DNA of 64,000 bases from Alphaproteobacteria bacterium (GTDB lineage: Bacteria > Pseudomonadota > Alphaproteobacteria > GCA-2731375): positions 1,312,001-1,376,000 of the forward strand of contig CBDDPY010000002.1 in assembly GCA_965232515.1 (NCBI GenBank), read 5' to 3'. The notes under the pieces were generated by a model. That model did no database searches and was not told the origin of the DNA. It saw only the letters and a list, made by a program, of their open reading frames with translations. Shown piece by piece: positions 43,834 through 58,449 of this stretch (position 1 is the first letter of the stretch; every line of letters begins with the position of its first letter). Both the position numbers and the translations under genes were made by a program.

Positions 43834-43923
43834 TGGCGGATGGGGTGGGATTCGAACCCACGAGACGCGCTAACGTCTGCCGGTTTTCAAGACCGGTGCC
43901 TTAAACCGCTCGGCCACCCATCC
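43834..43923 (-). tRNA. tRNA-Ser(TGA), 90 nt, encoded CCA
   Basis: GGATGGG...CCGGT-CT-TGA-AA-ACCGG anticodon arm, long variable arm, GGTTCGAATCC T-arm, CCCATCC-G-CCA end. Confidence 0.96.
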
Positions 43924-43925
43924 GC
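43883..43925. repeat. att core, left copy (within the intact tRNA)
   Basis: GTTTTCAAGACCGGTGCCTTAAACCGCTCGGCCACCCATCCGC. Confidence 0.95.
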
Positions 43926-43988
43926 AATAATGATTTCAATCACTTAACAAAATTGTCGGGGCCGCGATACACCGCAAGAGCCCCGACT

Positions 43989-44007
43989 TGCAACCCAATT
44001 GCAACCC
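43989..44007. repeat. Probable integrase arm-type sites (TGCAACCC x2)
   Basis: TGCAACCC at 43989 and 44000; the same tandem pair recurs at 58270 and 58282 near the other att. Confidence 0.7.
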
Positions 44008-44017
44008 GACCGGCCGG

Positions 44018-45169
44018 TCAGCGTTCTACCATTGGTCTCAATATCGCGTCTATCCGGTTGGCCGCTTCTTCCTGCATTCCCGGCAGCACATGCGAATAGG
44101 TGTCGAGCGTGATCGAGACCGACGCATGGCCGGCGCGCTCACTCGCCACCTTCGGGTGCACGCCTTCAAGCAGCAGGTGCGAGATGTGCGTATGCCGGAG
44201 ATCGTGAAACCGGACGGTCGGGACATCGATGCCGGCGATGCGGCGGGCAAACTCGCGGGTGAGGGAGCGCGGCTGGACTGGCGCGCCGTCATAGCGGCAG
44301 ATAACCAACCCCTCGTCGTCGCGCCCCATGCCTTGGGCAAGCCGGAGCTCGGCCTGCTCGCGCCGATGGCGCCGCAGGGCATCGACCGCGACCGCAGGCA
44401 ATGAGATCGTCCGGCGCGAGCGTGCCGTCTTCGGCGGCTGGAACTGCACGCCCTTGGCTGTCTGCTCCAAGGTCTGGGTTACCGAGATGGACGCGCCGTC
44501 GAGATCGACATCGCGCCAGCGCAGACCAAGTATCTCGCCGCGGCGCATACCTGTGGTGACGGCCAGCAGGACCGGCATGTAAAGCTTGGTGCCGCCTATC
44601 GCGTCGAGCAGGACGCCAGTTTCCTTCGGGGTCAGGATCCGCATTTCCTTCCGCACCGGCCGCGGCGGCTCGACATCCTTGGCCGGGTTCCTGGCGATCA
44701 TCTGCCAGCGCACGGCCTGCTTTAGCGCCTGGCTGAGTATGCGGTGGTGGTGCTTCACCGACTGGGCGGAAAGACCTCCCTTGCCATCACGGCGGCCCGA
44801 TTCGAGCGCCTTTGACCATGCGGTGCTGATATGGACCGGCTGCAGCTTGCTGAGAACGTGCGTGCCCAGCGCCGGCACCAGATGATGGTGCACGATGTCG
44901 GCGTAGCGCTCGAACGTCTTCGGTCGAACGCTCGGCTTCACGGTGTCAAGCCACTGCTGCAGGAACTCGGCAACCGTGGTGCGGCTCGGCTCGACATACT
45001 CATTCGCATCCAGCGCGGCCAGCAGGCGGTTGAGTTCCCGCTGAGCATCGCGCTTGCCGCCGCGGACAGTGTGCCATTTGGTGCGGCGCTTCCCGGTCTC
45101 AGGGTCGCGCCCGATATCAATCTTTATCGCCCATGATTCCTTACCGCGCTTGCGGATATGACCTTTCAT
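44018..45169 (-). CDS. int: Tyrosine integrase
   Basis: Arm-binding N-terminus MKGHIRKRG..W; TGMRRGE, KT, FHDLRHT, GH, TYSH catalytic set; adjacent to att. Confidence 0.96.
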   Translation of the reverse strand: MKGHIRKRGKESWAIKIDIGRDPETGKRRTKWHTVRGGKRDAQRELNRLLAALDANEYVEPSRTTVAEFLQQWLDTVKPSVRPKTFERYADIVHHHLVPALGTHVLSKLQPVHISTAWSKALESGRRDGKGGLSAQSVKHHHRILSQALKQAVRWQMIARNPAKDVEPPRPVRKEMRILTPKETGVLLDAIGGTKLYMPVLLAVTTGMRRGEILGLRWRDVDLDGASISVTQTLEQTAKGVQFQPPKTARSRRTISLPAVAVDALRRHRREQAELRLAQGMGRDDEGLVICRYDGAPVQPRSLTREFARRIAGIDVPTVRFHDLRHTHISHLLLEGVHPKVASERAGHASVSITLDTYSHVLPGMQEEAANRIDAILRPMVER

Positions 45170-45717
45170 TTCAGCCTCCCGATCAGATCGCCCAGCCATT
45201 CCCGGATGCTGGGGAACATCTTCAACTGTTTTGAGTATTGAACGCCCTTCTCCGGAAGCGGCGTCTCATAGGTCATTTTCAACTGATCGATGATCCCGAG
45301 AGCGGTGGCCTCCGCCAATTGCTCGGGCTTAGGTGCCCAGCTTAGATGGGCCGGCGCCTTGGTCTTGCCCGCGGGTCGGAAGGCCAGCAACAGCTTTGCA
45401 ATCGCCTGGGCAGTGACCTCGGTGGTGTAAGCGTCGCTCGCCCAGTGCCGCCGCGTGATCATCTCGACCGAGTCAAAGACCTCGTTGAACAGCCGCGCAA
45501 ACGCATAGCGCTCGAGGCTATCGAACCGCTCCCGGATTTGCTTTTCATCGTCGAATGACCCGCGCAGCCGCGCCTCGACCTCCTGGCTAAGTGACATGTT
45601 GCTCGCCGCCCGGGCGTCCTCCAACGCCTGCCGCAAGTCGGCTGTAATGCGCGTGGTGAGCACGGCCCGCTTGTCCTCATAAGGCCCGCTTGGTTTGCGT
45701 CCGATCTTCCTTGGCAT
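45166..45717 (-). CDS. Arc/TraY-like ribbon-helix-helix regulator
   Basis: LTTRITADLRQALEDARAASNMSLSQEVEARL has an RHH pattern; ATGA-coupled to int, divergent from xis. Confidence 0.7.
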   Translation of the reverse strand: MPRKIGRKPSGPYEDKRAVLTTRITADLRQALEDARAASNMSLSQEVEARLRGSFDDEKQIRERFDSLERYAFARLFNEVFDSVEMITRRHWASDAYTTEVTAQAIAKLLLAFRPAGKTKAPAHLSWAPKPEQLAEATALGIIDQLKMTYETPLPEKGVQYSKQLKMFPSIREWLGDLIGRLK

Positions 45718-45898
45718 CGTCTCGTCCTGCTTAATTTGTCTTCACTATTTTTCACTCTGATGCGTTTTGATGTGGTGCGCAAGCACAAAAAGGGCTATAG
45801 CGGCTAGAGGCGAAACAAAACGAGACCGGCCGAGGCCACAGAGGGGGCCGTAGTCCTAGGGCTCGACCAACTGCGAAGCGCAAAGGAAAGGAAACATC

Positions 45899-46093
45899 AT
45901 GCTGGAAAACCCGAAGACCATCAGCGTCCCCGAGGCCGGCTGGCGCTATTTCGGTCTCAGCAAGAATGCGTCCTATGAGGCCGCCAGGCGCGGCGATCTT
46001 CCCGTCATCCGCATCGGTCGCATCCTGCGCGTCCCGGTGGCCGCGATGGACCGAATGCTTGAGCAGGCCGGCCAAAACGAACGCGCTGCCTGA
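45899..46093 (+). CDS. Excisionase-like HTH protein
   Basis: TISVPEA...GLSKN..YEAARRGDLP.IRIGR..RVP; AAGGA RBS. Confidence 0.85.
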   Translation: MLENPKTISVPEAGWRYFGLSKNASYEAARRGDLPVIRIGRILRVPVAAMDRMLEQAGQNERAA

Positions 46094-46133
46094 CGCGACG
46101 AGTAGAAAGAGGACCGAGCGCTAGCCGCGAGCC

Positions 46134-46310
46134 ATGACCGCAAGGCTCACTATCGATGCTGAGCGAGAACGCCGGCTGTGCGACGGCGAAAGATCGCCAG
46201 ACCGCGCAGGCGGTACGACGGACATGGCAGCAGATGCGGCCATGAACACGTTTGAGAGGATCGGCGAGATTGTCGACCGAATCGTAAAGCGGATTTGGAT
46301 CGATGATTGA
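46134..46310 (+). CDS. Small hypothetical protein (58 aa, below the track cutoff)
   Basis: Open frame ending MNTFERIGEIVDRIVKRIWIDD, overlapping the next start; alternative start 46242. Confidence 0.4.
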   Translation: MTARLTIDAERERRLCDGERSPDRAGGTTDMAADAAMNTFERIGEIVDRIVKRIWIDD

Positions 46311-46866
46311 ACTCGACTTCGACCCCCGAGAGACCTTCTACGCCTGCGGGCGCGATGTCCGACAGAGCCACATTGATCGGATCTGCCGGCACGTCACACC
46401 GCGCGCATTGCTCGGCGGCGGCGGCTTCGGTGTTGCCCGCATCCAGTTCGACGGTGACAGGTTCGATTTCGACGCCGCCGGCTTCGAAGCGTTCATTCTG
46501 GCCGCAAGAGAGTCACGGTGGACCGATCAGCTCGGAACCATAACCCCCATTATCGATCTCGTTGCCTGGCTGCCCGACCGCCCGCAGGTGTTCGGCGTGC
46601 TGGAGGGCCGCGCCTGGGCACTCGGGGAGCCGGCTCTATCGCCGAACCGAATGACCGCAGTCCCGGTCGTGCGAACACCGCTCGCCTGGCTGCAGCACGG
46701 CGGCGACGCGCTGCTGATCCTCGATCGCAAGCGGGCTTGGCTAGAACTGATGCACGGGCCGGCCCTGATCGCCGAAGACGTGCAGCATGGCCGAGAGCTG
46801 CGAGAGATCGTCAACCCGCCGAAATGGACGGGCGAAATCATGTTGCGGGAGAGGGCGGCAGCATGA
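46303..46866 (+). CDS. Hypothetical replication-module protein
   Basis: 187 aa with IIDLVAW and RTPLAWL motifs; ATGA-coupled to the helicase. Confidence 0.7.
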   Translation: MIELDFDPRETFYACGRDVRQSHIDRICRHVTPRALLGGGGFGVARIQFDGDRFDFDAAGFEAFILAARESRWTDQLGTITPIIDLVAWLPDRPQVFGVLEGRAWALGEPALSPNRMTAVPVVRTPLAWLQHGGDALLILDRKRAWLELMHGPALIAEDVQHGRELREIVNPPKWTGEIMLRERAAA

Positions 46867-48005
46867 GCGACGACGGGTTGATCCGACTGGAGGACGCCGA
46901 ACACCGCGCCCGCGGCGGCGATCCCACGCCGATCATCGACGAACTCGACCCTGTAAGGCTGCACGGCAAGCCGATCCCGCCGCGCCGCTGGTTGGTGCCC
47001 GGCCTGATCCCGTGGAAATCCGTCACGTTGCTCGGCGGCGATGGTGGGTTGGGAAAGTCGCTGCTAGCAATGCAGCTCCAGGCCGCGGCCGCGATCGGGC
47101 AAGACTGGATCGGGTTCGAAACCCAGCCGGTCAAGTCATACGGCATCTACTGCGAGGACGACGCCGACGAGCTGCACCGCCGGCTTGCCGACATTGCACG
47201 GCATCACGGCGTCGAGCTCGGCGACCTGGCCGACATGCTGATGGCGCCGAGGGTCGGACACAACAGTGTTTTGGCGTCGACCGGCTACGACCGCATCTTC
47301 CGCGAGCTGCCGCTATTCCAGGCTGTCAAAGCGAAGTGCCGCGAGCATGGCGCCCAATTACTCATCATCGACACCGTGGCCGACACGTTCGGCGGAAACG
47401 AGAACTTCCGCGGCGAGGTGCGCACCTTCATCAACCTGCTGCGGCAGATCGCAATCGAGATCGACGGCGCCGTTGTCTTAACCGCACATCCGTCGAAAGA
47501 CGGCCTGTCGACCGGCAGCGGTATTTCGGGGTCGACCGCCTGGAACAACAGCGTTCGGTCTCGCGTCTACCTGACCCGGCCCAACACCGACGACGGCGAG
47601 GAGGACCGATCGGACGAACGGGTGCTGAAGACGATGAAAGCCAATTACGGCGGCCTGCATGACGATATCCGGCTCGTCTGGCGGGATGGCGTTTTCGTCC
47701 GCATCGAGGAGCCGAGCGGCACCATTGGTGCCATCGAGCGACGGTCAGCGGAAGGTGCGTTTCTGGAGGGTCTGGACGCGCTGCAGCGCCAGGGCCGAGC
47801 GGTTAGCGAGTCCCGCAATGCCGGCAACTTCGCGCCGAAGGTAATCGCCGGCATGAAGGTCGGGAAGCGGCACGGCCGGGGCAAGTTGGCCAAGGCCATG
47901 GAGCGGCTTTTCGACGAAGGAAAGATCAAGGTCGAGACGTACGGACGCACCGGCGATCGGCACAAGCGCATCGTCATCGTCGGCGAGGAGGGGCACGAAA
48001 AATGA
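46863..48005 (+). CDS. AAA_25 / RepA-type SF4 helicase
   Basis: RRWLVPGLIP, Walker A GDGGLGKS, Walker B LLIIDT, GGNEN, AHPSK, SGSTAW, KANY; start ATG 46863. Confidence 0.92.
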   Translation: MSDDGLIRLEDAEHRARGGDPTPIIDELDPVRLHGKPIPPRRWLVPGLIPWKSVTLLGGDGGLGKSLLAMQLQAAAAIGQDWIGFETQPVKSYGIYCEDDADELHRRLADIARHHGVELGDLADMLMAPRVGHNSVLASTGYDRIFRELPLFQAVKAKCREHGAQLLIIDTVADTFGGNENFRGEVRTFINLLRQIAIEIDGAVVLTAHPSKDGLSTGSGISGSTAWNNSVRSRVYLTRPNTDDGEEDRSDERVLKTMKANYGGLHDDIRLVWRDGVFVRIEEPSGTIGAIERRSAEGAFLEGLDALQRQGRAVSESRNAGNFAPKVIAGMKVGKRHGRGKLAKAMERLFDEGKIKVETYGRTGDRHKRIVIVGEEGHEK

Positions 48006-48008
48006 GCT

Positions 48009-48196
48009 GCGTCGGTCCCGTTTCGCCACCTCGTAAGTCATTGATTTTATTCGCGTCGGTGTGTGTTCGACGATTTTGCGTAGGTGTCTGAGAAAATGAA
48101 AGAAAATCAATCACTTAACTCTTGCGTCGGTTCTGCGTCGGTGTGTGCCTACCCCCATAGGGGGGTAGGGCAGGGCCCCCGCTCGTCGGGGGAGCC
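48009..48196. other. Putative replication origin: GCGTCGGT iterons, two inverted IHF-consensus sites, GC-rich hairpins
   Basis: GCGTCGGT at 48009, 48053, 48124, 48135 (GCGTAGGT at 48078); TAAGTCATTGATT at 48034 and AATCAATCACTTA at 48105. Confidence 0.65.
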
Positions 48197-48243
48197 CACT
48201 GCCCCAGTTCCGTCACTCCCCTTGGAAACCCGGAGGAACCGAA

Positions 48244-48588
48244 ATGCTTGATGACATCACCTGCGCCGAGTTCGGCCAGCGCGTGGTCGACGAACTCGCG
48301 CGAACCTGCCCGCATCTGCAGCCTTTCCTCGTCGAGACCGCCCGGTTCGGCGCGGTATGCACATTCGCTCGCGAGAAGAAGTTGGGCGGCGACAAGCCGG
48401 CCTGGCAGATCCTCGAGTCGGCGCTTGCTGACATCTTTCACGTGGCGCGCCGGATAGGCACCGGCGGCGATGACATGACCTGGACCGTGGTTTCGGACAA
48501 GGCCGCGCTTCGCGAGGCGCTGACCGCCGTTTTGCAGCCCGAGCCGGCGCCCGAGCCCGAAGAACCGAACATCCTTATGGCCGGTTAG
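48244..48588 (+). CDS. Hypothetical protein
   Basis: GGAGG RBS; first gene of the coupled late-like operon. Confidence 0.65.
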   Translation: MLDDITCAEFGQRVVDELARTCPHLQPFLVETARFGAVCTFAREKKLGGDKPAWQILESALADIFHVARRIGTGGDDMTWTVVSDKAALREALTAVLQPEPAPEPEEPNILMAG

Positions 48589-48631
48589 GACGGCGAAACC
48601 GGCGTCTGTCTGCACAGTGGAGACCGCGCAA

Positions 48632-48868
48632 GTGAGCGAAAAGACAAAGGAAACCGGGAAACGCCCCCCTCGTGTCGGCCGTCTTGACACCGTTGGCGGC
48701 GTCGTCGCGGAGCTGGGCAAGATCTATCGAGCGGCCCGCCGCGGCGATATCGACACCCAGGATGTGACCCGGCTCGCCTATGTGCTGTCGCAAATCCGCG
48801 CGGCCATCGAAAGCAGCGAAATCGAGCGCCGGCTTGACGAGCTTGAACGCAAGGCAGGAACGCTATGA
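48632..48868 (+). CDS. Small helical protein, possible small-terminase/packaging-type factor
   Basis: G.I....A..L pattern and terminal EIERRLDELE coiled coil; function inferred only. Confidence 0.55.
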   Translation: MSEKTKETGKRPPRVGRLDTVGGVVAELGKIYRAARRGDIDTQDVTRLAYVLSQIRAAIESSEIERRLDELERKAGTL

Positions 48869-49179
48869 GCAAGCGCCTCCGCGCCCGGTTGGAACGCCTC
48901 GAAACCGCGAAGGCAGATGCCGAGGCGTTCTGCAACACCATCGTCGTTCTGCCCGGAGAGACGCACGACCAGGCGCTCGGTCGCCTCGGCTTCGAGCCTG
49001 GCCCAGTCGACATGACCATGTTCGTGCAGCGGTTCGCCGAAGACGCGCAGCCAGAACCGGTAAAGCGGACACCGCTCGTCGGCAGACCAGCCGGGCCGCT
49101 CCGGGTTGTTATGGCCGACGACTGGAGCCGGGAAGACTGGGACCTGACGGAATACGCCGACTGCGAGGGGCGGTCATGA
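48865..49179 (+). CDS. Hypothetical protein (RLERLE...PGET)
   Basis: ATGA overlaps on both sides. Confidence 0.7.
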   Translation: MSKRLRARLERLETAKADAEAFCNTIVVLPGETHDQALGRLGFEPGPVDMTMFVQRFAEDAQPEPVKRTPLVGRPAGPLRVVMADDWSREDWDLTEYADCEGRS

Positions 49180-49364
49180 GGCGGAGCATCACACATCGCC
49201 TCGACCGCGTGGCCCGCCGCGTCGACCCGTCGCCGGGGATTGTATTTGTCATTATCAAGCCCGGAGAGACGCGGGAATCCGTCATGGCCGAAAGGGGCCT
49301 GACCGGGCGCAAGTTCCGAGCCCTCTACATCATCGACCTGACGAAAGGGGAACACGATGAATGA
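49176..49364 (+). CDS. Small hypothetical protein, apparent paralogue of the preceding gene
   Basis: MRRSITHRLDRV...IIKPGET; ATGA-coupled. Confidence 0.6.
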   Translation: MRRSITHRLDRVARRVDPSPGIVFVIIKPGETRESVMAERGLTGRKFRALYIIDLTKGEHDE

Positions 49365-50013
49365 ACCTGTAAACGAGGCCGAACCGTCGGCAGCCGAGAA
49401 GGTGGCCGCGACGCTCGCCGGCCTCGAAACGCAACTCGCCGACGCGACGGCCGAGCGTTCCGAGCTGATCGACCGACAGGGCCGATTGGCGATGCGCATG
49501 CACAGCGGCGACAGCGCAGCCGGCGAAGCCTATCGCGGCGTGGTGGGCGAGCGGCGCCGGCTTGATGAGACGGTCGAAAGCCTGACGCTCGCTGTGCAGG
49601 CGGCCCGCGCCGAGCATGAGCAGGCTGTCAGCGACGATATGGCGGCCGCCGAGGCAAACCGGGCCGAGCGTATCGACGCCCTACTCGACCTGCGCAATGC
49701 GGCGCTTGCCGACGCCGAGCGAGCCTTGCGCGAGGCGCTCGACCGGCTGGACCGAGCCGGCGAGCTGGCGGCCGAGATCGTCGAGGTTCGCGGCGCTGTC
49801 AAGAACCTGCCCCGTTTCAGCAACACGCTGCACCCCGAAAACACACGCGACCGGCTGTCGTGTTCGGCCAACGCGTTCGGGCTCGGGCGGTGGCTCAATC
49901 TCGATCAGGAGCGGATGCCGTTCATCAGGGACGACACGCCATCGTCGCTGGTCGACGTCGAGGCACCCGTACAGGACCGATATCGACTGACCGAGAAGGA
50001 GCACGCGGCATGA
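49357..50013 (+). CDS. Coiled-coil protein
   Basis: Ala/Glu/Arg-rich heptads over about 150 aa; AAGGGG RBS. Confidence 0.75.
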   Translation: MNEPVNEAEPSAAEKVAATLAGLETQLADATAERSELIDRQGRLAMRMHSGDSAAGEAYRGVVGERRRLDETVESLTLAVQAARAEHEQAVSDDMAAAEANRAERIDALLDLRNAALADAERALREALDRLDRAGELAAEIVEVRGAVKNLPRFSNTLHPENTRDRLSCSANAFGLGRWLNLDQERMPFIRDDTPSSLVDVEAPVQDRYRLTEKEHAA

Positions 50014-50363
50014 ACGCGCAAGAGGCACAACGGAAGATCCGCGCCATCCTGGCCGACAAGGATCACGCCTATCACGATTCTCGTAGTCCACAGCATCAAG
50101 ACGCTGTGGACGTGATGCAGGGGCTTTACGAGATCGTCTATCCGGTCAGCGAGCCCGAGCCCGGCGGGCAGCGGTTCGCCGAGCTGGCGCAATCCCAGAT
50201 CCGGAAGAAGGAAAGCGATCCCGACTTCATGGCGGCGTACCGCGAACCCGGCCACGCCGATCACGCGCAGGCGGTCGAGACCATGAACCGGCTTTACCGC
50301 GAGGCGCACCCGGAGCCCTCGATCGAGGAAGGGTTCGCAGACGCAGGAGGGCCCGAGCAATGA
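50010..50363 (+). CDS. Protein with two tandem copies of a podovirus scaffold C-terminal-like motif
   Basis: Internal repeat AQ..IR....D...AY......H..AV..M..LY....P; AAGGAG RBS and ATGA overlap at 50010. Confidence 0.7.
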   Translation: MNAQEAQRKIRAILADKDHAYHDSRSPQHQDAVDVMQGLYEIVYPVSEPEPGGQRFAELAQSQIRKKESDPDFMAAYREPGHADHAQAVETMNRLYREAHPEPSIEEGFADAGGPEQ

Positions 50364-50803
50364 CCATGAGCGGCGTTGCAACCGGCGGCCTGGGCAGCAT
50401 CGGAGACCAGCAGCACAAGCCCGATGACTTCCAGGCACTCTTGGAGACGTACGGCACCGCCTCGGCGGCCGGCGACTACAAGCACTTCAGCGAAGCGGTT
50501 GGGGACAGGCTGGTTGAAGCCGGCGTGCTGGACGAAAATAGCCCTTGGCTGACGACGTTCGTCTTGCAGGCGCAGGCGGCGGCAAAGCTCCGGGAAGTCG
50601 TCGACGGACGCGGCGAAGTGGTGCGGGATTTCGGCGGGCTCGCCATGTTCCTAAGTGATCGCGCGATGATCGGTGGCGACGAAGGGCGTCGGCTACTGCT
50701 CGAGTACGCAGACTTCCGCCAGGCGTTCGCAAAGGCATGCCGGGACGAGCTGGAAGCCCGAAGCGGACAACCAGGCTACGAAGCACCGGACGACGCCGCA
50801 TGA
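50360..50803 (+). CDS. Hypothetical protein
   Basis: ATGA-coupled on both sides; AGGAGG RBS. Confidence 0.7.
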   Translation: MTMSGVATGGLGSIGDQQHKPDDFQALLETYGTASAAGDYKHFSEAVGDRLVEAGVLDENSPWLTTFVLQAQAAAKLREVVDGRGEVVRDFGGLAMFLSDRAMIGGDEGRRLLLEYADFRQAFAKACRDELEARSGQPGYEAPDDAA

Positions 50804-51312
50804 CCACTGCGCCCGCTACAGTCGATTATCGCGCGCGCTCGCGGCGGCCCGTCATCCGGGAAGCGACGGCCGCCGACGTGCCCGAGCTGGTGCGCCTGGG
50901 CGCCGAGATGCACGCGGAGTCGCCGGCCTATTCCTGGCTGCCGTTCGACGACGTGCTGGCGCTCGCGAACGGGCATCGCTGGGTGATGAGCGACGAACAC
51001 TTGGTGCTGACGGCCGACGATGACGGCGACCTGTTCGGCGTGCTGGTCGGGCACCTCGGACGGTTCTTCTTCTCGCGCCGGCTGATCGCCTCCGACATCG
51101 TGCTCTATGTCCGCGCCGAACGCCGCGGCGGCCTGGCGGCGAGCCGGATGGTCAAGCGCTTCCGGGACTGGGCGACAGAGCGCGGCGCCGCCGAGATGTG
51201 TATCGGGGTAAGCGCCGGCATCGATAGCGAGCGTATCGGCCGCTGGCTGGAAGCGATGGGAATGGACATCGGCGCGGTCACGTACAAGAGGCGGCTCGAT
51301 GTCACTCCATGA
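50800..51312 (+). CDS. Phage-type GNAT acetyltransferase
   Basis: IREATAADVP, LYVRAERRGG..A..M, start ATG 50800. Confidence 0.82.
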   Translation: MTTAPATVDYRARSRRPVIREATAADVPELVRLGAEMHAESPAYSWLPFDDVLALANGHRWVMSDEHLVLTADDDGDLFGVLVGHLGRFFFSRRLIASDIVLYVRAERRGGLAASRMVKRFRDWATERGAAEMCIGVSAGIDSERIGRWLEAMGMDIGAVTYKRRLDVTP

Positions 51313-52018
51313 ACTCGGACCACCGTTCGGCGATGATGGCGCGTGCGATCGGGATTGCGGTGGCGCGGTCCATGCCCGGCCGCAGTCGGTCGTCGTAGAG
51401 CGTGGCGAGGAGCAGCCTGTCAGCCGGGGTGAGCTCGAAAACCGTATCGGCTTCGCAGATGACGGACGGACGGTAGTGGCAGGCGTCGGCCGGCAGGCCC
51501 ATCGCCTGATAGATCTCCTCAAGGATGCAGTCGCGCTGGTCTCGTTCCGAGATGTCGGCGCCGATCAGCACAAGCGCGCCGATCACCTCGCCGTTGCCGC
51601 GTTGCGTGGCGATGTGCACCAGGCAAAGCGATGCGTTGATTTCATCGCCGGCACTTACCCATGTTGGCTGCACCTGACGAAATTGCCGGCGCGGCATAAC
51701 GGCGATTTGGAAATTGACCTGATCGTCGCGGACGGCGCTCCGGTTCCAGCCGAGACCGGTTGCTACGGCGATGTCATCCATGCTGGCTTTGAGGAAGGCG
51801 TCATGCAGGGCAAGGCTCGTTCGAGCGGCCTCACTGTCGACCCATCCAACGACTGGTTCGTTGGGCCAGCGCCGCATGGTGTCTTGGCCAACGCCGAAAT
51901 CATTACCGAAAGCGGCCACTTCGAATTGCCGGGCCACGTTCTCGGGTGTCGGCGTAATCGGCTCCGGGCCAGTCGACACGCAACCGGCGAGCAAGAGAGC
52001 GGCGAGCAGCACACGCAT
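51302..52018 (-). CDS. DUF2927-like lipoprotein
   Basis: Lipobox LLAGC; CILEEIYQAMGLPAD..S; D..LL..LYD.RLRPGM. Confidence 0.75.
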   Translation of the reverse strand: MRVLLAALLLAGCVSTGPEPITPTPENVARQFEVAAFGNDFGVGQDTMRRWPNEPVVGWVDSEAARTSLALHDAFLKASMDDIAVATGLGWNRSAVRDDQVNFQIAVMPRRQFRQVQPTWVSAGDEINASLCLVHIATQRGNGEVIGALVLIGADISERDQRDCILEEIYQAMGLPADACHYRPSVICEADTVFELTPADRLLLATLYDDRLRPGMDRATAIPIARAIIAERWSEFME

Positions 52019-52056
52019 GCCGCAACCATATAGGCGCGAACAAAGGAGACGCAATC

Positions 52057-52890
52057 ATGTGTGGTACAGGCGGTGAAGGCGACAACGGCGGCGATGCCGA
52101 AGTTGACATTGAAGCGCAGGCATTCGGCGTTGGCCCGGTCGGGCAGACGGGGCCGGCACCGGGACCAGGGAATGAGCCGGGCGGGCCGTCGGACAATCCG
52201 GGTCCGGGTCAGTTTGGCGGCATCGGCGCGCCGGGCACGTCCGGGAATTTCGGCGGTGTCGGCGGTCCTGCCGATCTTGAAGCCGATCAAGCCGGGCGGA
52301 ACCCTGGCGCGCTGTCGCCGGGTAAGGGACCAGGGCCGAGCAGCAACACAGTGGGCAAGGTCATCAAAAATGTCTTGCCGTTCGGTGTGCCGCCGGCCGC
52401 TCTCGATCCGTTGGCCGAGAAGGGCGGCCGCGCAATAACAGGCCTTATCGAGGGCATAACCGGAGCGAAGGGCCAAGCCCCCGGCCAAGGCCCCAGCACA
52501 GGCAGCGAAGGCGGTCCCGCGAGCGATTTCGGCGAGAGCGGTAACTTCGGCGGTGTTGGCTTTGGTGGCGGAAACACTGGCGGCGACGGTGCGGTTGATA
52601 ATGGCGCTTCCCGACCGCTGGCAACGTCCGTGCAGACAGCCGAGCGTCAAATCGCGAACCAGCTCGGGCGGCCGGCGCCGCCGGCACGCGCCCCTGCGCT
52701 TGACCTGCCGAGCTCGAACATTGACGAGATCCGTGCCGAGCTGGAAGCAGAGAAAGACGCCCGCCGACGCCGGCGGCGCGCGACACGCGATTCAACGATC
52801 GTGACCGGTCCGCTCGGCGTGCCTGGGCAACCGGAGCTGCTGTTCACTCGCGCGATCCCCGGCGCGTCGCGTCGCCTTTTGGGGCAGTGA
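52057..52890 (+). CDS. Gly/Pro-rich protein with MC start and podovirus virion-protein-like C-terminus
   Basis: AAGGAG RBS; ends RRRRRATRDSTIVTGPLGV...RRLLGQ. Confidence 0.7.
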   Translation: MCGTGGEGDNGGDAEVDIEAQAFGVGPVGQTGPAPGPGNEPGGPSDNPGPGQFGGIGAPGTSGNFGGVGGPADLEADQAGRNPGALSPGKGPGPSSNTVGKVIKNVLPFGVPPAALDPLAEKGGRAITGLIEGITGAKGQAPGQGPSTGSEGGPASDFGESGNFGGVGFGGGNTGGDGAVDNGASRPLATSVQTAERQIANQLGRPAPPARAPALDLPSSNIDEIRAELEAEKDARRRRRRATRDSTIVTGPLGVPGQPELLFTRAIPGASRRLLGQ

Positions 52891-52892
52891 CG

Positions 52893-53198
52893 ATGGCCGA
52901 CGACGACAAGGTGGTCGAACTCAGCGACTCGCGCGGCGATCAGATCCAGGCCGATCAGCAATTCCTGCTCGACGAGCTACGCAAGTCTGCAGCAGCGGCG
53001 GCGGACATCCCCGATCTGGCCGGCTTCGCCCTGATCGCCTGGGACGGCGAGGCGAAGCCCTACACGCTGGTGAACCTCGGCGCGACCGTTAATCCGACCG
53101 TGCCGCGGCAGCTAATCCCGGCCTATGTGCAGATCGTCATGCAGCAGTGGCACGCGCTGTGCTGCGAGCAGGAGCGGTTAGATGGCAGTGAACTGTAA
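52893..53198 (+). CDS. Hypothetical protein
   Basis: Immediately follows the previous stop; LAGFALIAWD motif; alternative GTG start 52887. Confidence 0.65.
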   Translation: MADDDKVVELSDSRGDQIQADQQFLLDELRKSAAAAADIPDLAGFALIAWDGEAKPYTLVNLGATVNPTVPRQLIPAYVQIVMQQWHALCCEQERLDGSEL

Positions 53199-53247
53199 TT
53201 GACGCCGCTACAAACTTCCTAGTCGGTCATCGACGTCCAGTTGAGCT

Positions 53248-53592
53248 TCATTCAATACGCCAAGAATGGTCTGGATCAGGCACAAAAGTCACTCCAGATC
53301 CACTACCAACTCCGATTCCCCCCGTTTCATCCGGAATCAAGGATCCCTCATGTTTGGAATAACGGATCATCACCAGCCAACCGTTTGGCACTGAAACCCT
53401 CCAAAGCTCGTAGCACGTCGGTTGAGGTCGAATCTCGCTACCACAATCTCTCTCAATAACCTCCCATAATAGGCGGTACTGACCTGCAGACTGACCTGCA
53501 GCCGGCGCAGATATCAGCAGCAAACTCGCTGAGATAGCTGCGATGGCAATGGGAATCCCTAAAACTAGCGAGGCACGCATCGGATTGCTCAC
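53248..53592 (-). CDS. Small secreted hypothetical protein (lower-GC cargo)
   Basis: Signal peptide; R..VPNGWLV and FVPDP.H.W motifs; GTGA-coupled to the upstream Cys-rich gene. Confidence 0.65.
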   Translation of the reverse strand: MSNPMRASLVLGIPIAIAAISASLLLISAPAAGQSAGQYRLLWEVIERDCGSEIRPQPTCYELWRVSVPNGWLVMIRYSKHEGSLIPDETGGIGVGSGSGVTFVPDPDHSWRIE

Positions 53593-53909
53593 TCACATCC
53601 GTCAAAGGGATCGCAAAAACAGCCGATCGGGCAATCCCCAGAGTGCTGACAGTACTGACCAACGCAACTCGTTGCCACAAGCTCATCAAATGACCGCAGC
53701 TCGTCCGGGCACCACGTAGCACGAATACAATTTGCCGAGCGCGCATGGGCCTCAGCAAACGAAAGTCCCTGTACATGGATTTTCTTTCGTGCGAGCGGTC
53801 CAGATTCTGGGTCTGCCACAAGGTATATCCCCGTGCCACTCATCTCGTTTTTGTTCTGGTTCGGCTGAACATACTTTGCAACTTCAGGATGAAGTTCGAA
53901 GGTCGGCAT
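53589..53909 (-). CDS. Small protein with a six-Cys C-terminal peptide
   Basis: GGGAGG RBS, ATG 53909; ends CVGQYCQHSGDCPIGCFCDPFDGCE. Confidence 0.65.
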   Translation of the reverse strand: MPTFELHPEVAKYVQPNQNKNEMSGTGIYLVADPESGPLARKKIHVQGLSFAEAHARSANCIRATWCPDELRSFDELVATSCVGQYCQHSGDCPIGCFCDPFDGCE

Positions 53910-54336
53910 AGCTACCTCCCGGCCAAATTGTCGAACACCATTTGATACTAGCAACCTTAGATTTTATAACAAACACCTGTAGCTATGAAACGGCAATTTG
54001 CCGGTAGACAGGTTTCCCCAATGCGCGAGCCTGCATCGGCGTCACCATGAACCCGTCGTGCTAGAGCACCTAATTTCGACCTACGTAAGGGACGTCATGC
54101 AGACATGGCACGGGCCGGCGTGCGGCCAGGAGCGGCTCGACGCCGGCAAGTCAGGGGGGAGAGAAGTAGCCCAGGCAGTCCCTTGCCGCTGTGGCGCGAA
54201 ACCTCGGCCAGAGAGGGGTGCTCTGTGGGGCATCCTTGGGCATGGAGAAAGAAAACAGGGAGGGCACCCACCTTGTTTTCGAAACTGCCGTCGATAATGA
54301 ACAGTGACGACCACAGAGCTTGCCAAGTGGGCGATG

Positions 54337-54546
54337 TTAGAGGCGCATGAACTGAACGAACGCCTGAATGGCGAACCCCGATACTACCAGCAGGAATCCA
54401 TAGAATTGGCGGTCGAACCGCTGTCCGCCACCGCTCCAGAACGGCCGGCGGTCCGGCGCCCTCAGTAGATGGTAGCCGAGAACTGCAAAGCCCACGCCGT
54501 CGCAGAGCAGCCCGACGAGATTGATGAACCCCAAACTCACAATCAT
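54337..54546 (-). CDS. Small two-TM membrane protein
   Basis: Two hydrophobic segments; AAGGGG RBS. Confidence 0.55.
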   Translation of the reverse strand: MIVSLGFINLVGLLCDGVGFAVLGYHLLRAPDRRPFWSGGGQRFDRQFYGFLLVVSGFAIQAFVQFMRL

Positions 54547-54577
54547 TGTCGCCCCCTTCTGACGTTGGCGGAGATTG

Positions 54578-55105
54578 TTATGTCGATGGACTGTCTTCAG
54601 ATGTCACGCCTTCCACATCTGACATTTCGATCGGCGGTATTCGCAGGTACAGCGGCCGCCCAAACGTGTGGTAGATCACGCCATAGACACGCTCGGTATG
54701 GGACCATTCAATCAAGTCTTGTGTCTGCTGGCACTGCGACATGAATTTCTCGCCAACCTTAAGAACGTAAGGGAGTGGATAGACGTCGCCTGGATGCATC
54801 ACGACGGCTGCCTTAGTCGATTTGTTGAGAAGCCAACTCCACCAACCGTCATAACCGAGCAGACCGATGGTGGTTATGGTCGTTGGGGTGGAGCCCGTGT
54901 TGGCAACGTCAAAGATCACGTATTTAGTGTCTCTTTCGAAGCCTCGGCCCCCGGCGAAAATCATGTTCGGCCGTGCCCATCCCTGTAACCGCGGTCCCCT
55001 CGACCACCATTTGATGGCATCCCAAACCAACACGAACGTCGCAACAATCGCCGCATAGATCGCGACAGGGTCGATTTCGTCGGCCAGATCAAACGTAAGC
55101 TCCAT
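54578..55105 (-). CDS. Membrane-anchored hypothetical protein
   Basis: N-terminal TM (VAIYAAIVAT..LVW), then beta-rich domain with V.N.G..PTTI. Confidence 0.7.
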   Translation of the reverse strand: MELTFDLADEIDPVAIYAAIVATFVLVWDAIKWWSRGPRLQGWARPNMIFAGGRGFERDTKYVIFDVANTGSTPTTITTIGLLGYDGWWSWLLNKSTKAAVVMHPGDVYPLPYVLKVGEKFMSQCQQTQDLIEWSHTERVYGVIYHTFGRPLYLRIPPIEMSDVEGVTSEDSPST

Positions 55106-55174
55106 GCTGGCACCCGCCTTTTCGATTTACGTTCGGCGCAATCTACAACCGATAATACAACCTAGCGGGCATAG

Positions 55175-55198
55175 AAAAGGCCCCGCCGAAGCGGGGCC
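55175..55198 (-). terminator. Rho-independent terminator after the recombinase
   Basis: Minus strand GGCCCCGC-TTCG-GCGGGGCC-TTTT. Confidence 0.85.
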
Positions 55199-55240
55199 AG
55201 TAGAGTCTTGGTGCGGCGAGGAAAGCGCCGCGGGGCCAGC

Positions 55241-56203
55241 TTACACGCGGTTCTGCGCTGTCGCCAGCTTGGCCGCCGCACCGCGGCGAACCATCAGGTT
55301 CTCGGTGTAGCGCGACACCATCAGCGCCGTTTTCCAGCCGCCGGCCTGCATGATGCCCGGCAGCTCGATGCCAGCCGCGACCATGTCCTGAGCGCAGCCG
55401 ACGCGCGTTGAATGCCCGGAGATGTCCGAGACCAGCGAATCGGCAACGCCGGCAGTGGCGGCCATGCGCTTGTAGATCCGGGCCACGTCGCCGCCCCGGA
55501 GACGGCTGCAGACGGCGCCGCCGAGCCGGACGGACCGGAACAACGCGCCATGCGCGATGTCGGCCGCCCGCAGCCACGCCGAGAGGTGCGCCACAGTGTC
55601 AGCCGCCAGGTACCGCATGGAGCCTTCGCCGCTCTGGTCGGTTTTGCTGCGCCGAATGAGCGCCGTTCCGTCGCCGGCCTCGGTCACATCGATGTCGGCC
55701 ACGTCCAGCGCCACGAGCTCGCTGCGCCGCGCCAGCGTGTCATAGGCGACGGACAGCAGCGCACGGTTGCGAAGGCCGATCGGCGTGTCGGGACAGGCCG
55801 CGAGCATGCGGTCGACCAGCGGGCGTGTCAGCCCGGCCGCCTGCCGCTGCCGCCGGCCTTTCTCGCGGTGCATGCGCTTCATGGCGAGCTTGACGGACAG
55901 GTCATCGGTTGGCGTCGGCACGCCTGCCGCACGGTGGAACATGGCGATGCTCGACACGTACCGCTGCACCGTCGCCGGCGCCCGGGCCTCGGACATCGCG
56001 TCGATGAACGCCACCACGGCCGCAGGGGTCGCGGGGAGGGGCGTGAACCCCTCCCGTACGCACCAGGCCGTCCAGATGGCCGTATCGCTCTTGAGCGCCC
56101 GCTCCGTCGCTTCGGCATAGGCGCCGCGGGCCTGCTCGGCGTGCCGCTCGAGATTGGCCAGCACATCGGCCGGCAGCGGCGTGACGGTGGTGAGCGCGTT
56201 CAT
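55241..56203 (-). CDS. Cre-like tyrosine recombinase (resolvase type)
   Basis: SAM-like N-domain; RNRALL..YDTLARRSEL, RRSKTDQ.G.G, SGHSTRVG.AQD, GGWK, RY; no arm-binding domain; GGAGG RBS before 56203. Confidence 0.92.
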   Translation of the reverse strand: MNALTTVTPLPADVLANLERHAEQARGAYAEATERALKSDTAIWTAWCVREGFTPLPATPAAVVAFIDAMSEARAPATVQRYVSSIAMFHRAAGVPTPTDDLSVKLAMKRMHREKGRRQRQAAGLTRPLVDRMLAACPDTPIGLRNRALLSVAYDTLARRSELVALDVADIDVTEAGDGTALIRRSKTDQSGEGSMRYLAADTVAHLSAWLRAADIAHGALFRSVRLGGAVCSRLRGGDVARIYKRMAATAGVADSLVSDISGHSTRVGCAQDMVAAGIELPGIMQAGGWKTALMVSRYTENLMVRRGAAAKLATAQNRV

Positions 56204-56517
56204 GACGAGCCTCCAACACTCAGGCCGACACTCCACAAAAGGGGCAACGCCCTTGTCTCGGGTCCAGGCTGCCGGCCCTCGTCAACAGCGATGCGCCAGT
56301 ACCGCGCGTCGAAGTCGAACGGCGGCCGCAGCGGATCGGCGTTGAGCCGCCACGCCAACAATGACGCCTCCTCCTCAAGCCAAGCCCAGTATTTGCGCAA
56401 GGCCTCCTCGGACGGGCGTTCGATGGCGGCGACGATTTGCGGCTTGATGATGGCCGCCGTCGATGCGATGGCGCCCATACCTTTGACGACAGTGCGACGG
56501 GAAACGTTCGTTTTCAT
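56200..56517 (-). CDS. Small phage-type protein with twin-arginine-like N-terminus
   Basis: MKTNVSRRTVVKG; GGAGG RBS; ATGA-coupled to the recombinase. Confidence 0.65.
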   Translation of the reverse strand: MKTNVSRRTVVKGMGAIASTAAIIKPQIVAAIERPSEEALRKYWAWLEEEASLLAWRLNADPLRPPFDFDARYWRIAVDEGRQPGPETRALPLLWSVGLSVGGSS

Positions 56518-56528
56518 GGCCGCCTCCC

Positions 56529-57167
56529 TCACACCCAAGCCTTGCCGCAGGCCAGATACTCGACCGTCTGATTGCTGGCGATTTGCGCCCGGCACCCTTC
56601 CGCCGACTGTTGGGTAAACTCGTTGTCGGCAAGATCGTTTTCCCGGTCGTGGTTGTCTTCGGCCGGGTCGTCGTCTTCCAGCGGGTCGTCATCCTCGTTG
56701 TCGTGGTCAGGCTCCATGTCGGCGGCTTCGCTGCCGAACTCGGCCAGCCAGGCCAGCAACGGCGGCGTGACGGGAACGAGCAGGTAATCCAGATCGCCGT
56801 CGACGGGGATAAGGTCAGCGTCGGCGACCAGCGCGGCAACGACCAGCGTCGCCTTGTGCGCCATCTGCCGCCGCAAGATCGCCGCTTCACCGGTCATAGC
56901 GATGGCGATGTTGGTGGCGGCTGTCCGCCGGCCAGTCGGGGCGCACCGGTGGTACTTCAGCAGTCGCGCCAGCTTCAGCAGCACATGCCGTGTGAAGTCG
57001 AGCCCGATGTCGTCGTGCACGTCGAGCAGATCGGCCGGCACGTCCGGCAGAAGGTGCGGCAGGTGTTCTGCCCGGTCATAGGACCTGGCCGATTCGCGGA
57101 CGAAGTGCTTGCGCGACGCAATGCCGATCGCGCGGGCTTGCGCGGCAGCCATTTCGATGGGTGTCAT
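56529..57167 (-). CDS. Hypothetical protein with acidic repeat tail; first gene after the C4 leader
   Basis: Tail EPDHDNEDDDPLEDDDPAEDNHDRENDLAD; RBS overlaps a C4 target box. Confidence 0.65.
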   Translation of the reverse strand: MTPIEMAAAQARAIGIASRKHFVRESARSYDRAEHLPHLLPDVPADLLDVHDDIGLDFTRHVLLKLARLLKYHRCAPTGRRTAATNIAIAMTGEAAILRRQMAHKATLVVAALVADADLIPVDGDLDYLLVPVTPPLLAWLAEFGSEAADMEPDHDNEDDDPLEDDDPAEDNHDRENDLADNEFTQQSAEGCRAQIASNQTVEYLACGKAWV

Positions 57168-57219
57168 GATGATTTCCTACGTTTGGCTTTCTAGGCCATG
57201 CCAGCGGTCAGCGCTGGCG

Positions 57220-57293
57220 CCGGGAGCTAGAAACCGGACGTAGGACCGGCGGGCTTATTCCCCCGAAGGGTCTTGTATTCACCGCACTCCCGA
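57220..57293 (-). ncRNA. C4-like antisense RNA (P1 C4 / P4 CI type)
   Basis: Closing stem CGGGAG/CTCCCG, internal GAATACAAGACCC-TTCG-GGGGAATAAG, antisense boxes CCTACGT and GTTTCTAG complementary to flanking targets. Confidence 0.8.
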
Positions 57294-57370
57294 CAGAAGC
57301 CGGGCATAAATATACCGCCAAGACCGGTGGCGGGAACCGCCTACGTTAGGTGTTTCTAGCACCGTCGATA

Positions 57371-57399
57371 ATGATAGATATGGGGCACCTAGTTTGCAA
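57371..57399 (-). promoter_or_regulatory. Sigma70-type promoter of the C4 operon
   Basis: Minus strand TTGCAA-17 bp-TATCAT just upstream of the first target boxes. Confidence 0.7.
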
Positions 57400-57473
57400 C
57401 CCTCGGCTAGTACGCAATTGATCGGAAGATTGGATCGCGGCGAGACGCAACGCTCAAACCTCAGCAATCGGCC

Positions 57474-58226
57474 ATGATGACAGTCAACAACTTCTCAGAA
57501 CTGATCGACGGAATTTCGACGATCATCGATGCGCGGCCAAGTGAGACGTGGTGGTGGCGGGGTCACGCCAGGAAGGACTGGAGCTTGCGCCCGAGCGTTC
57601 ATCGAGGCGACCTCGGGCATCGGTATGAGCAGAACTCGTTGGCGACCTTTGTTCGGTACAGCTCTGCACGGCATGCGAACTGCCCTGCGCGCAATGACCT
57701 GCCATCGTGGGCATTCCTGATGCAGCACTACGGGGTGCCCACGCGCCTGTTGGACTGGTCGGAGTCCCCACTCATTGCCGTTTATTTTGCTGTCGCCAAC
57801 CAGGCACACGAAGCTGAGGCAGGGGTGTTGTCTGGGCTACTTCCCGGCCCCATGAACCATCATGAAGCCGGCCTAGCCGGAGTGATTGGCATTAACGGGG
57901 AACCAGCTCGTTCATTGTTCTTGGCCATGAGCGATGAACGAATTCATGAAAAGCACCAAGAAATCATCGCGATACAAGCAAACCAAATGGACCCGCGGAT
58001 GCTGGCGCAGCTTTCGCACTTCACGATCCATGGCCGCGCCACACCTATTGAGCAGATCGATGTCGCGGGTCAGGTCCTCTTCCAAATAGAGATAGCGCCG
58101 CAAGCCAAGGCCGGCATTCGTGAGAGGCTGAGGCAGTTCGGAGTGAGGGAAATGAATCTATTTCCGGATCTCGAACACCTCGCTAACGAGATTCGTGAAT
58201 TGCGGTGGAAAGCGCCCGAAAGCTGA
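57474..58226 (+). CDS. FRG-domain protein
   Basis: WWRGH....W.L.PS..R, MQHYGVPTRLLDWSESPLIA.YFA, RM.AQ...FT, LFPDL. Confidence 0.92.
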   Translation: MMTVNNFSELIDGISTIIDARPSETWWWRGHARKDWSLRPSVHRGDLGHRYEQNSLATFVRYSSARHANCPARNDLPSWAFLMQHYGVPTRLLDWSESPLIAVYFAVANQAHEAEAGVLSGLLPGPMNHHEAGLAGVIGINGEPARSLFLAMSDERIHEKHQEIIAIQANQMDPRMLAQLSHFTIHGRATPIEQIDVAGQVLFQIEIAPQAKAGIRERLRQFGVREMNLFPDLEHLANEIRELRWKAPES

Positions 58227-58406
58227 ACGTCCAACTCGGCGCGAACCGTTGCCAAAGAACAGCGCCATCTGCAACCCACATTGCAACCCAACTGCGAAGG
58301 AATTGCCGGGATGACCGGGGACGAAGCGAAACACCGGACGCCACGAAAGGCCCGGATTTCCTAACTCTCAGGGAAGTGAAGGGACAGCGCGGTACGGTTG
58401 TAATCA

Positions 58407-58449
58407 GTTTTCAAGACCGGTGCCTTAAACCGCTCGGCCACCCATCCGC
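58407..58449. repeat. att core, right copy (displaced 5' half of tRNA-Ser)
   Basis: Identical to 43883-43925; covers tRNA position 1 through the anticodon loop. Confidence 0.95.

Follow-up and report, generated by a model that had tools for sequence, protein, structure and literature searches.

The window analyzed here is a 64-kb stretch of the 7.39-Mb genome of an alphaproteobacterium (assembly GCA_965232515.1, contig CBDDPY010000002.1, positions 1,312,001 to 1,376,000). On an island of 14.5 kb that is integrated at tRNA-Ser, it probably carries an antisense RNA switch of the C4 type, encoded in cis, and all elements of the switch are read on the minus strand (Table 1). The RNA belongs formally to the sRNA-Xcc1 family, and we consider it likely that it forms a C4-type switch whose cargo, three genes of which the last encodes a Cre-type recombinase, is unusual and so far without a second example. 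Because the RNA lies between two copies of its target ahead of the three genes, its position in the sequence suggests that it most likely keeps them switched off. A broader reading, which we advance only tentatively, is that self-targeting immunity RNAs of the C4 type may comprise a second widespread lineage, namely the whole sRNA-Xcc1 family; its members would resemble tRNAs, depend on RNase P for their release, and have a copy of their own bipartite target on either side. One of these would have been recruited here to make a Cre-type recombinase conditional, firing on entry into a naive cell or on induction. Covariation of RNA and targets across the family is the most useful result, since it alters the reading of an annotated RNA family.

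The RNA matches the Rfam sRNA-Xcc1 model (RF02221) with 59 bits, above the gathering cut-off of 53, over the full model (positions 1-87). The E-value of this match is 4.7e-8 in the window and 5.2e-10 in 701 nucleotides (nt), and the genome holds a single copy. All helices of the sRNA-Xcc1 consensus, the closing stem and two hairpins, are aligned, with a few non-canonical pairs, and the centroid fold of the single sequence retains the closing stem and hairpin 2. By the curated cut-off and the shared consensus structure, the RNA is formally a member of sRNA-Xcc1, and it stands outside the Rfam C4 clan (CL00128). The original prediction, made from the sequence of the window, had placed a structured RNA at 57293-57220; the RNA is present, but the covariance model gives it a different extent, 57294-57211.

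When the minus strand was read, every element listed in that prediction was found at its claimed coordinates or a few bases from them. The a and b boxes of both pairs are exact complements of the RNA's a' and b' segments. Pairing at b2 reaches ACGUAGGA and therefore covers the AGGA ribosome-binding site of gene 1. With one mismatch allowed, the two-box pattern CTAGAAA-N(3-9)-ACGTAGG occurs three times in the genome, each time exactly and all within one 184-nt stretch: as a1b1, as a2b2, and as the complement of the RNA's own b'a'. With the pattern reversed as a control, the same genome gave 11 matches. Between 54900 and 57700 there is a single sigma-70-like match, the site at 57399-57371, where shuffled sequences average 0.4. 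The genes behind the leader are packed as an operon: genes 1 and 2 are 11 nt apart, gene 2 overlaps the recombinase gene as ATGA, and the whole has a single promoter-like site and a single strong terminator. DNA run X3 agrees with the locus sequence, in fragments. A duplex-energy scan of the window with b'a' was also tried; it ranked GC-rich, G:U-laden spurious duplexes above the true boxes and was discarded because it ignores RNA structure.

The C4 RNA of phage P1 is released by RNase P processing, and the CA RNA of N15 has a target-antisense-target layout. P1 was studied by Citron and Schuster. The immI regions of P1 and P7 have the same order on one strand as the leader described here: promoter, a1, b1, hairpin with U-run, RNA, a2, b2, and first gene. 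The P1 record annotates a1 (48255-61), b1 (48269-76), c4 (48343-48419), a2 (48423-29), b2 (48452-59), and icd (48470), and it remarks of C4 “repression of icd ant translation”. This order bears out the earlier comparison of the layout with that of P1. In P1/P7 C4 as in this RNA, the second hairpin carries b' in its loop, the single strand leading to the closing stem carries a', and the tRNA-like closing stem is followed by CCA; b2 of P1 ends 10 nt before the icd start. Unlike in P1 C4, hairpin 1 is longer here and has conserved AAUACAA and GAAUA internal loops, and the a2-b2 spacer is 5 nt rather than 22 nt. The cargo also differs, showing no similarity to Icd or Ant1 and ending in a recombinase, and the setting is a high-GC alphaproteobacterial island rather than a plasmid prophage. 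Alignment of this leader to the P1 leader by sequence was uninformative. IsrK of Salmonella Gifsy-1 (RF01394) is a further likeness, with a1/b1-type boxes and a terminator hairpin followed by a processed stable RNA and an antirepressor-type operon. Excerpted reports on IsrK have it activating, not repressing, translation, and the isrK model has no match here.

Box sequences vary by locus in the sRNA-Xcc1 family, and therefore RNA and flanks co-vary. For the class sample, 151 genomes of the same class supplied 30 loci, the present one among them; 24 of the genomes had a match at E ≤ 1e-3 and six a match above the cut-off. A flank was scored as holding a locus's own boxes when two consecutive segments of the RNA 3' half each had a perfect complement of 6 nt or more there, in the right order, and RNAs set against the flanks of other loci served as control. 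Own boxes were found upstream (160 nt, spacer ≤ 15) at 22/30 loci compared to 28/792 (3.5%) in the control, downstream (80 nt, same spacer) at 6/30 compared to 9/792, and on either side at 25/30. With a 90-nt flank and a spacer of up to 30, the downstream count rose to 12/30 (control 20/792, 2.5%). RCCA follows the closing stem at 19 of the 30 loci. Leaving out L024, which comes from an unpublished genome (G071), the counts are 22/29 upstream, 5/29 and 11/29 downstream, and 18/29 for RCCA. An independent phylum sample of 151 genomes, 32 of them with matches, added 29 new loci; own boxes were upstream at 23, downstream at 17, and on both sides at 15 of these, with controls of 18/678 (2.7%) upstream and 16/678 (2.4%) downstream. 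In clear cases b2 ends 6-12 nt 5' of the start codon, and at four class-sample loci a2 stands at +4/5 and b2 at +35, which is the P1 spacing. In mismatched controls of the two samples, upstream boxes were present in only about 3%. The original prediction had named two outcomes against itself, the absence of a covariance-model match and the absence of box conservation or covariation; neither was found, since a covariance model matches and the boxes co-vary.

Table 1. Positions of the switch, its operon, and the surrounding island in the 64-kb window.
Feature	Position	Strand	Basis or remark
Promoter-like site	57371..57399	-	-35 TTGCAA, 17-nt spacer, -10 TATCAT; motif match, presumed function
Target box a1, CTAGAAAC	57352..57359	-	Complementary to a' of RNA
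Target box b1, ACGTAGG	57340..57346	-	Complementary to b' of RNA
Terminator-like/attenuator hairpin CCGCCA-CCGGTCT-TGGCGG (stem-loop 57333-57315), then TATATTTAT	57306..57333	-	Fold
C4-type antisense RNA, 84 nt, Rfam sRNA-Xcc1	57211..57294	-	Covariance model; closing stem and two hairpins
b' CCUACGU (DNA CCTACGT), loop of hairpin 2 of RNA	57238..57244	-	Model alignment and sequence
a' GTTTCTAGC (= GUUUCUAGC, also given as GUUUCUAG), single strand between hairpin 2 and closing stem	57226..57234	-	
GCCA after closing stem of RNA	57215..57218	-	Sequence
Hairpin GCCAGCG-CTGAC-CGCTGGC, directly 3' of RNA, no T-run	57200..57218	-	Fold
Target box a2, CTAGAAA	57188..57194	-	Complementary to a'
Target box b2, ACGTAGG (57176-57182), pairing extended to ACGTAGGA	57175..57182	-	Complementary to b'
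Ribosome-binding site of gene 1, AGGA	57175..57178	-	7 nt before ATG at 57167
Gene 1, 212 aa	56529..57167	-	Helical N-terminal domain (residues 1-115) conserved; C-terminal half acidic
Gene 2, 105 aa	56200..56517	-	Twin-arginine-like N-terminus (SRRTVVKG and hydrophobic stretch)
Cre-type tyrosine recombinase, 320 aa	55241..56203	-	ATG overlaps gene 2 stop as ATGA
Intrinsic-terminator-like hairpin GGCCCCGC-TTCG-GCGGGGCC (55198-55179), then TTTTCTAT	55171..55198	-	8 GC pairs
Island, 14.5 kb, at tRNA-Ser	43834..58449	.	Bounded by 43-bp direct repeats; span given with the tRNA gene
tRNA-Ser(tga)	43834..43923	-	
Left 43-bp direct repeat	43883..43925	.	Inside tRNA-Ser(tga)
Tyrosine integrase	44018..45199		Beside intact tRNA, on its 5' side
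AAA_25 primase/helicase-like gene	46518..48005	opposite to RNA operon	
FRG-domain gene	57474..58226	+	PADLOC candidate single-gene defence family PDC-S15, E 5e-41; divergent from RNA promoter
Right 43-bp direct repeat	58407..58449	.	Identical to left

sRNA-Xcc1, known from Xanthomonas campestris as a trans-acting sRNA of integron cassettes, is a routine label in genome annotation, and it entered Rfam by community submission (PMC3531072, in excerpt). One report (PMC2996969) gives it a Northern-blot size of about 100 nt, a mapped length of 88 nt, and many predicted targets, and excerpts of a Xylella study treat it as a virulence-related, trans-acting RNA that is possibly exported, one genome having C4, isrK, and sRNA-Xcc1 in tandem (PMC12189769). 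On this precedent the RNA would be a trans-acting, host-directed sRNA and its flanking boxes incidental. We regard this as very improbable, as the two-box target is confined to this locus genome-wide and the boxes co-vary with the RNA at most family loci, which incidental sequence would not do. Where the sampled literature has sRNA-Xcc1 as trans-acting and virulence-linked, the targets flank the RNA itself here and at most sampled loci. In the text excerpted from other sources, an ORF6N protein is encoded downstream of sRNA-Xcc1 in APSE phages (PMC7313666), and the order of sRNA-Xcc1 with symE in Xanthomonas cassettes is described as “suggesting a divergent regulatory mechanism” (bioRxiv 10.1101/2025.06.18.660453). 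The c4 and c4-a1b1 motifs are catalogued by Weinberg et al. (2010) (PMC2864571, in excerpt). Among the literature searched, the text available gave only side-by-side listings of C4 and sRNA-Xcc1 and nowhere assigned C4-type flanking targets to the latter; most subscription journals lay outside the search, and an earlier report is possible.

If the family-wide reading holds, sRNA-Xcc1 changes from a virulence or host-directed sRNA to one with targets next door, as in P1 immI. C4 logic would then reach past antirepressors, to nucleases, methylases, and regulators in the family and to a Cre-type recombinase here. The locus itself would be a natural RNA-gated site-specific recombination switch, and a recombinase set by a programmable two-box antisense RNA would give recombination tools gated by RNA a template from nature. 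Should the switch be inactive, the locus is an ordinary Rfam match on a genomic island.

From the anatomy of the leader we infer co-transcription, processing, a translational block, and coupling, in the following way. One promoter would drive a single transcript with the leader (a1/b1, the weak terminator-like hairpin, the 84-nt RNA, and a2/b2) and the three coupled genes. The RNA would be cut from the leader, and RNase P is the probable enzyme because of the tRNA-like 8-bp closing stem, the U at -1, the G at +1, and the 3' GCCA. The hairpin directly after the RNA (57218-57200) possibly serves in 3' end protection or processing. The b' loop and the adjoining single-stranded a' would then pair with a2/b2 and occlude the ribosome-binding site of gene 1, and translational coupling and polarity would turn off gene 2 and the recombinase too. 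The a1/b1 pair may be a second binding site that acts as a decoy, in autoregulation, or in helping transcription to terminate at the hairpin. A fold of the 207-nt leader pairs b'a' with a2b2 in cis (z = -2.4), and therefore the block may already act on the unprocessed transcript. The net effect would be immunity-like: the operon would be silent where the RNA has accumulated and expressed only if the transcript gets ahead of the RNA, for instance when the element enters a naive cell or is strongly induced. The Cre relative would presumably act on the element's own DNA, perhaps for circularisation or multimer resolution upon entry or induction, as the original prediction had suggested.

Premature termination of the P4 type is the main mechanistic rival to this translational block and is compatible with it. 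Here the RNA would pair with a1/b1 and a2/b2 on the nascent transcript and cause termination, for example at the hairpin 57333-57306, instead of or besides blocking translation. The hairpin is terminator-like and stands between a1b1 and the RNA, where P1 also has a hairpin with a U-run. The P4 CI RNA is an immunity RNA in the leader of its own operon with complementary targets on both sides, and it terminates transcription by pairing with seqA and seqC (PMC4825925, in excerpt). As in P4, an integrase gene and a primase/helicase-like one (AAA_25) are present on the island, which also has an HTH_17-like gene. However, termination at this hairpin would halt synthesis of the RNA too, as the hairpin lies upstream of it; its T-run (TATATTTAT) is interrupted, and such a hairpin is present at only 6/30 family loci. 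In P4 termination acts on the replication operon, whereas here, and at other loci, b2 coincides exactly with the ribosome-binding site, an indication of translational control. Nor does the RNA precede a replication gene: unlike in P4, the AAA_25 replication-type gene is 9 kb off on the other strand, and the RNA precedes a different operon. We therefore think P4-type termination rather unlikely, though the least unlikely of the rivals considered here.

The product of the third gene is, judged by its sequence, a true Cre relative, closer to Cre than to Xer or integron integrases, which upholds the Cre-like assignment made earlier. It matches PF00589 (Phage_integrase) with 73.8 bits against a cut-off of 27.1, and BLASTP aligns it with P1 Cre at 32% identity over 306 aa (E 4e-41). 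Residues R159, K187, H264, R267, W290, and Y299 align with all six Cre catalytic residues, which we take to be R173, K201, H289, R292, W315, and Y324 in Cre numbering. Its 17 best PDB matches are all Cre or the derivative Tre, with Cre chains at E 2e-35 and XerD next at 1.5e-5, and the NCBIfam Xer models score far under their cut-offs. In P1, cre has its own promoters, lies beside lox, and is outside C4 control, whereas here the recombinase is the third gene of a putatively RNA-gated operon. Of 401 class genomes, 25 (this one among them) have loci with homologs of the recombinase, at identities of up to 54%; no homolog of gene 1 or gene 2 was present in 19 recombinase-homolog loci. The combination of RNA and Cre-type recombinase is so far unique among the sampled loci. 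A search for the recombinase target, proposed earlier, gave one 13-8-13 candidate in the 15 kb scanned, with two mismatches (57908-57941, TCGTTCATTGTTC / GAGCGATGAACGA) and inside the FRG gene. Lox-like in geometry, it is the only 13-8-13 inverted repeat with two mismatches on the island and is at chance level, with an estimated 0.8 or so expected. In comparison with P1 Cre/loxP there is no convincing lox-like site in these 15 kb, and a palindrome search for the target gave nothing useful.

Gene 1 is a near-orphan to which neither family nor fold assigns a function. No family in Pfam, PHROGs, NCBIfam, or PADLOC, and no toxin family, was found for it or for gene 2, and neither is similar to P1 Icd or Ant1. 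For gene 1 there are three partial homologs among 5.8 billion proteins and four representatives, including itself, among 1.84 billion; the relatives have its first ~105 residues in common, and the Protein Atlas gave no usable match. The AlphaFold model of gene 1 has a mean pLDDT of 70.6, with residues 1-115 near 90, and Foldseek found no match at E ≤ 0.001 in PDB and BFVD. Its one genomic homolog is on a short contig of a metagenome-assembled genome (L052:816-3493). There the gene 1 relative lies downstream of an open reading frame (ORF) with a Peptidase_S24 (CI/LexA-type) match at threshold, a neighbour that amounts to no more than a hint of a phage-regulatory setting. Gene 2 has the ribosome-binding site GGGAGG one base past the gene 1 stop. 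It has a single homolog (76% identity), and its Protein Atlas matches are leads only, to hypothetical proteins and proteins with twin-arginine (Tat) signals. The product of L007:1619-2185 has a twin-arginine-like start as well (TRRDLLALSG, compared to SRRTVVKG in gene 2), and both genes lie behind sRNA-Xcc1-family RNAs; beyond this signal-like start the two proteins have no similarity. Genes 1 and 2 may represent a new kind of antirepressor. As both are near-orphans, the earlier statement that the switch controls a recombinase “rather than an antirepressor” is unproven; it is gene 1 that lies directly under the RNA, and the recombinase is only third and presumably translationally coupled.

Cargo genes behind such RNAs elsewhere were examined as the first one or two ORFs past the RNA, using Pfam. 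Of the 29 other loci of the class sample, 24 contributed 34 ORFs to the scan (L005, L006, L015, and L016 were omitted as having no ORF start within 250 nt, and L011, with an ORF start 220 nt downstream, was omitted as well). Rha-like domains were found below threshold in L002, L025, and L004, helix-turn-helix (HTH) regulators in L026 and L009, and also SNase, N6_N4 methylase, AAA_24, PDDEXK_4, and GmrSD_C domains; many ORFs in this sample had no Pfam family. The phylum-sample scan took in 30 out of 48 candidate ORFs, representing 25 of the 29 loci. Classical antirepressor domains were above cut-off in five of these loci, P22_AR_N in L057, Bro-N with P22_AR_C in L058 and L064, and Phage_pRha in L070 and L080, a cargo that favours the C4-type reading.

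Some of this cargo recalls a type-I toxin-antitoxin-like addiction module, in which gene 1 or the unchecked recombinase would be harmful and the stable RNA the antidote. Nuclease or DNA-modifying domains (SNase, PDDEXK_4, GmrSD_C, N6_N4 methylase) do lie behind the RNA at other family loci, and the founding sRNA-Xcc1 is placed upstream of the toxin gene symE in Xanthomonas integron cassettes (bioRxiv 10.1101/2025.06.18.660453, in excerpt). An addiction module is nevertheless unlikely here, given that genes 1 and 2 lack a toxin family in the four databases named above and gene 1 lacks a fold match. Furthermore, a labile antidote is needed, but a tRNA-like RNA is expected to be long-lived.

At L004/L027 (G045:C1:749745-751817), three sRNA-Xcc1 copies lie ~994 nt apart. 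Two copies were examined, and behind each lie an ORF of 104 aa and a Rha-like ORF. The two copies differ in the b' loop and in the b box that matches it (CTTTTGT and CTTGTTT), and from its sequence the locus appears to be a tandem array of switches with distinct specificities.

Several results weigh against a C4-type switch controlling these three genes. The original prediction had proposed a scan with the Rfam C4 and c4-a1b1 models. A covariance-model match was obtained, to sRNA-Xcc1, but C4 (RF01695), c4-a1b1 (RF03163), and isrK gave none at E ≤ 10 in a permissive scan of 56900-57600, nor did they match at 20 other sRNA-Xcc1 loci, which match RF02221 only. The phage P1 immI region, as positive control, scored 68.8 bits for C4 and 51 bits for c4-a1b1, with isrK sub-threshold at 35 bits over a1b1 and the hairpin, and had no sRNA-Xcc1 match. 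Because these models do not match here, the kinship with C4 is architectural and not a demonstrated homology. The RNA alone is not more stable than shuffled sequences (z = -0.14), and the minimum-energy fold of hairpin 1 departs from the Rfam consensus. The upstream hairpin with T-run, which was found in 1/28 control windows, is not a family trait. Related genomes among the sampled loci are not independent, and a few two-box matches, as at L002 and L009, take in stem bases and may be chance. No such RNA lies upstream of the gene 1 homolog in L052, and the loci compared do not bear out the RNA-recombinase link: none of 18 recombinase-homolog loci (identity ≤ 54%) has an sRNA-Xcc1-type RNA at E ≤ 0.1, and tblastn found no recombinase homolog downstream of the RNA at any of the 58 other loci (1.5 kb each side). 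The only recombinase-like neighbour among the 58 is in L062 (G477:C411:1-2627), where a gene fragment with 36% identity to the recombinase over 140 aa, sub-threshold for PF00589, lies upstream of the RNA by ~565 nt and divergent. Nor was any target for the recombinase found in the 15 kb beyond the chance-level candidate.

The unremarkable fold energy and the unique cargo would also suit a decayed or chance arrangement, a functionless relic RNA gene beside unrelated genes. Yet both box pairs are perfect, b2 lies on the ribosome-binding site, and the model score exceeds the curated cut-off. The three ORFs are intact with ribosome-binding sites, and the recombinase retains its six catalytic residues. 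A relic therefore seems highly unlikely, and a C4-type switch is the reading we prefer.

A genomic island at a tRNA gene forms the setting of this operon. The 43-bp repeats that bound the island copy the 5' part of tRNA-Ser(tga), and core metabolic genes (NnrU and a dihydropyrimidine-dehydrogenase-type gene) flank them. The putatively RNA-gated operon is at the right end of the island. The HTH_17-like ORF of the island scores 26.8 bits, just below the cut-off of 27. At L066, L068, L070, and L071, sRNA-Xcc1 copies have tRNA genes no more than 1.5 kb away, which is consistent with placement on tRNA-integrated elements.

Two further repeats were observed near the operon. The hairpin region between b1 and the RNA (57319-57340) is identical at 18/22 positions, in direct orientation, to part of the tRNA-Ser/attachment (att) repeat (GCGGTT...CACCGGTCTTG). 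A relic att site was considered and set aside because the similarity stops at 57319-57340; by a rough estimate the similarity is near chance level, with 0.05-0.1 such matches expected by chance. Past the operon terminator, at 55144-55162 and upstream of a 175-aa ORF (54578-55105), there is a GGTTGTA direct repeat in two copies 12 nt apart.

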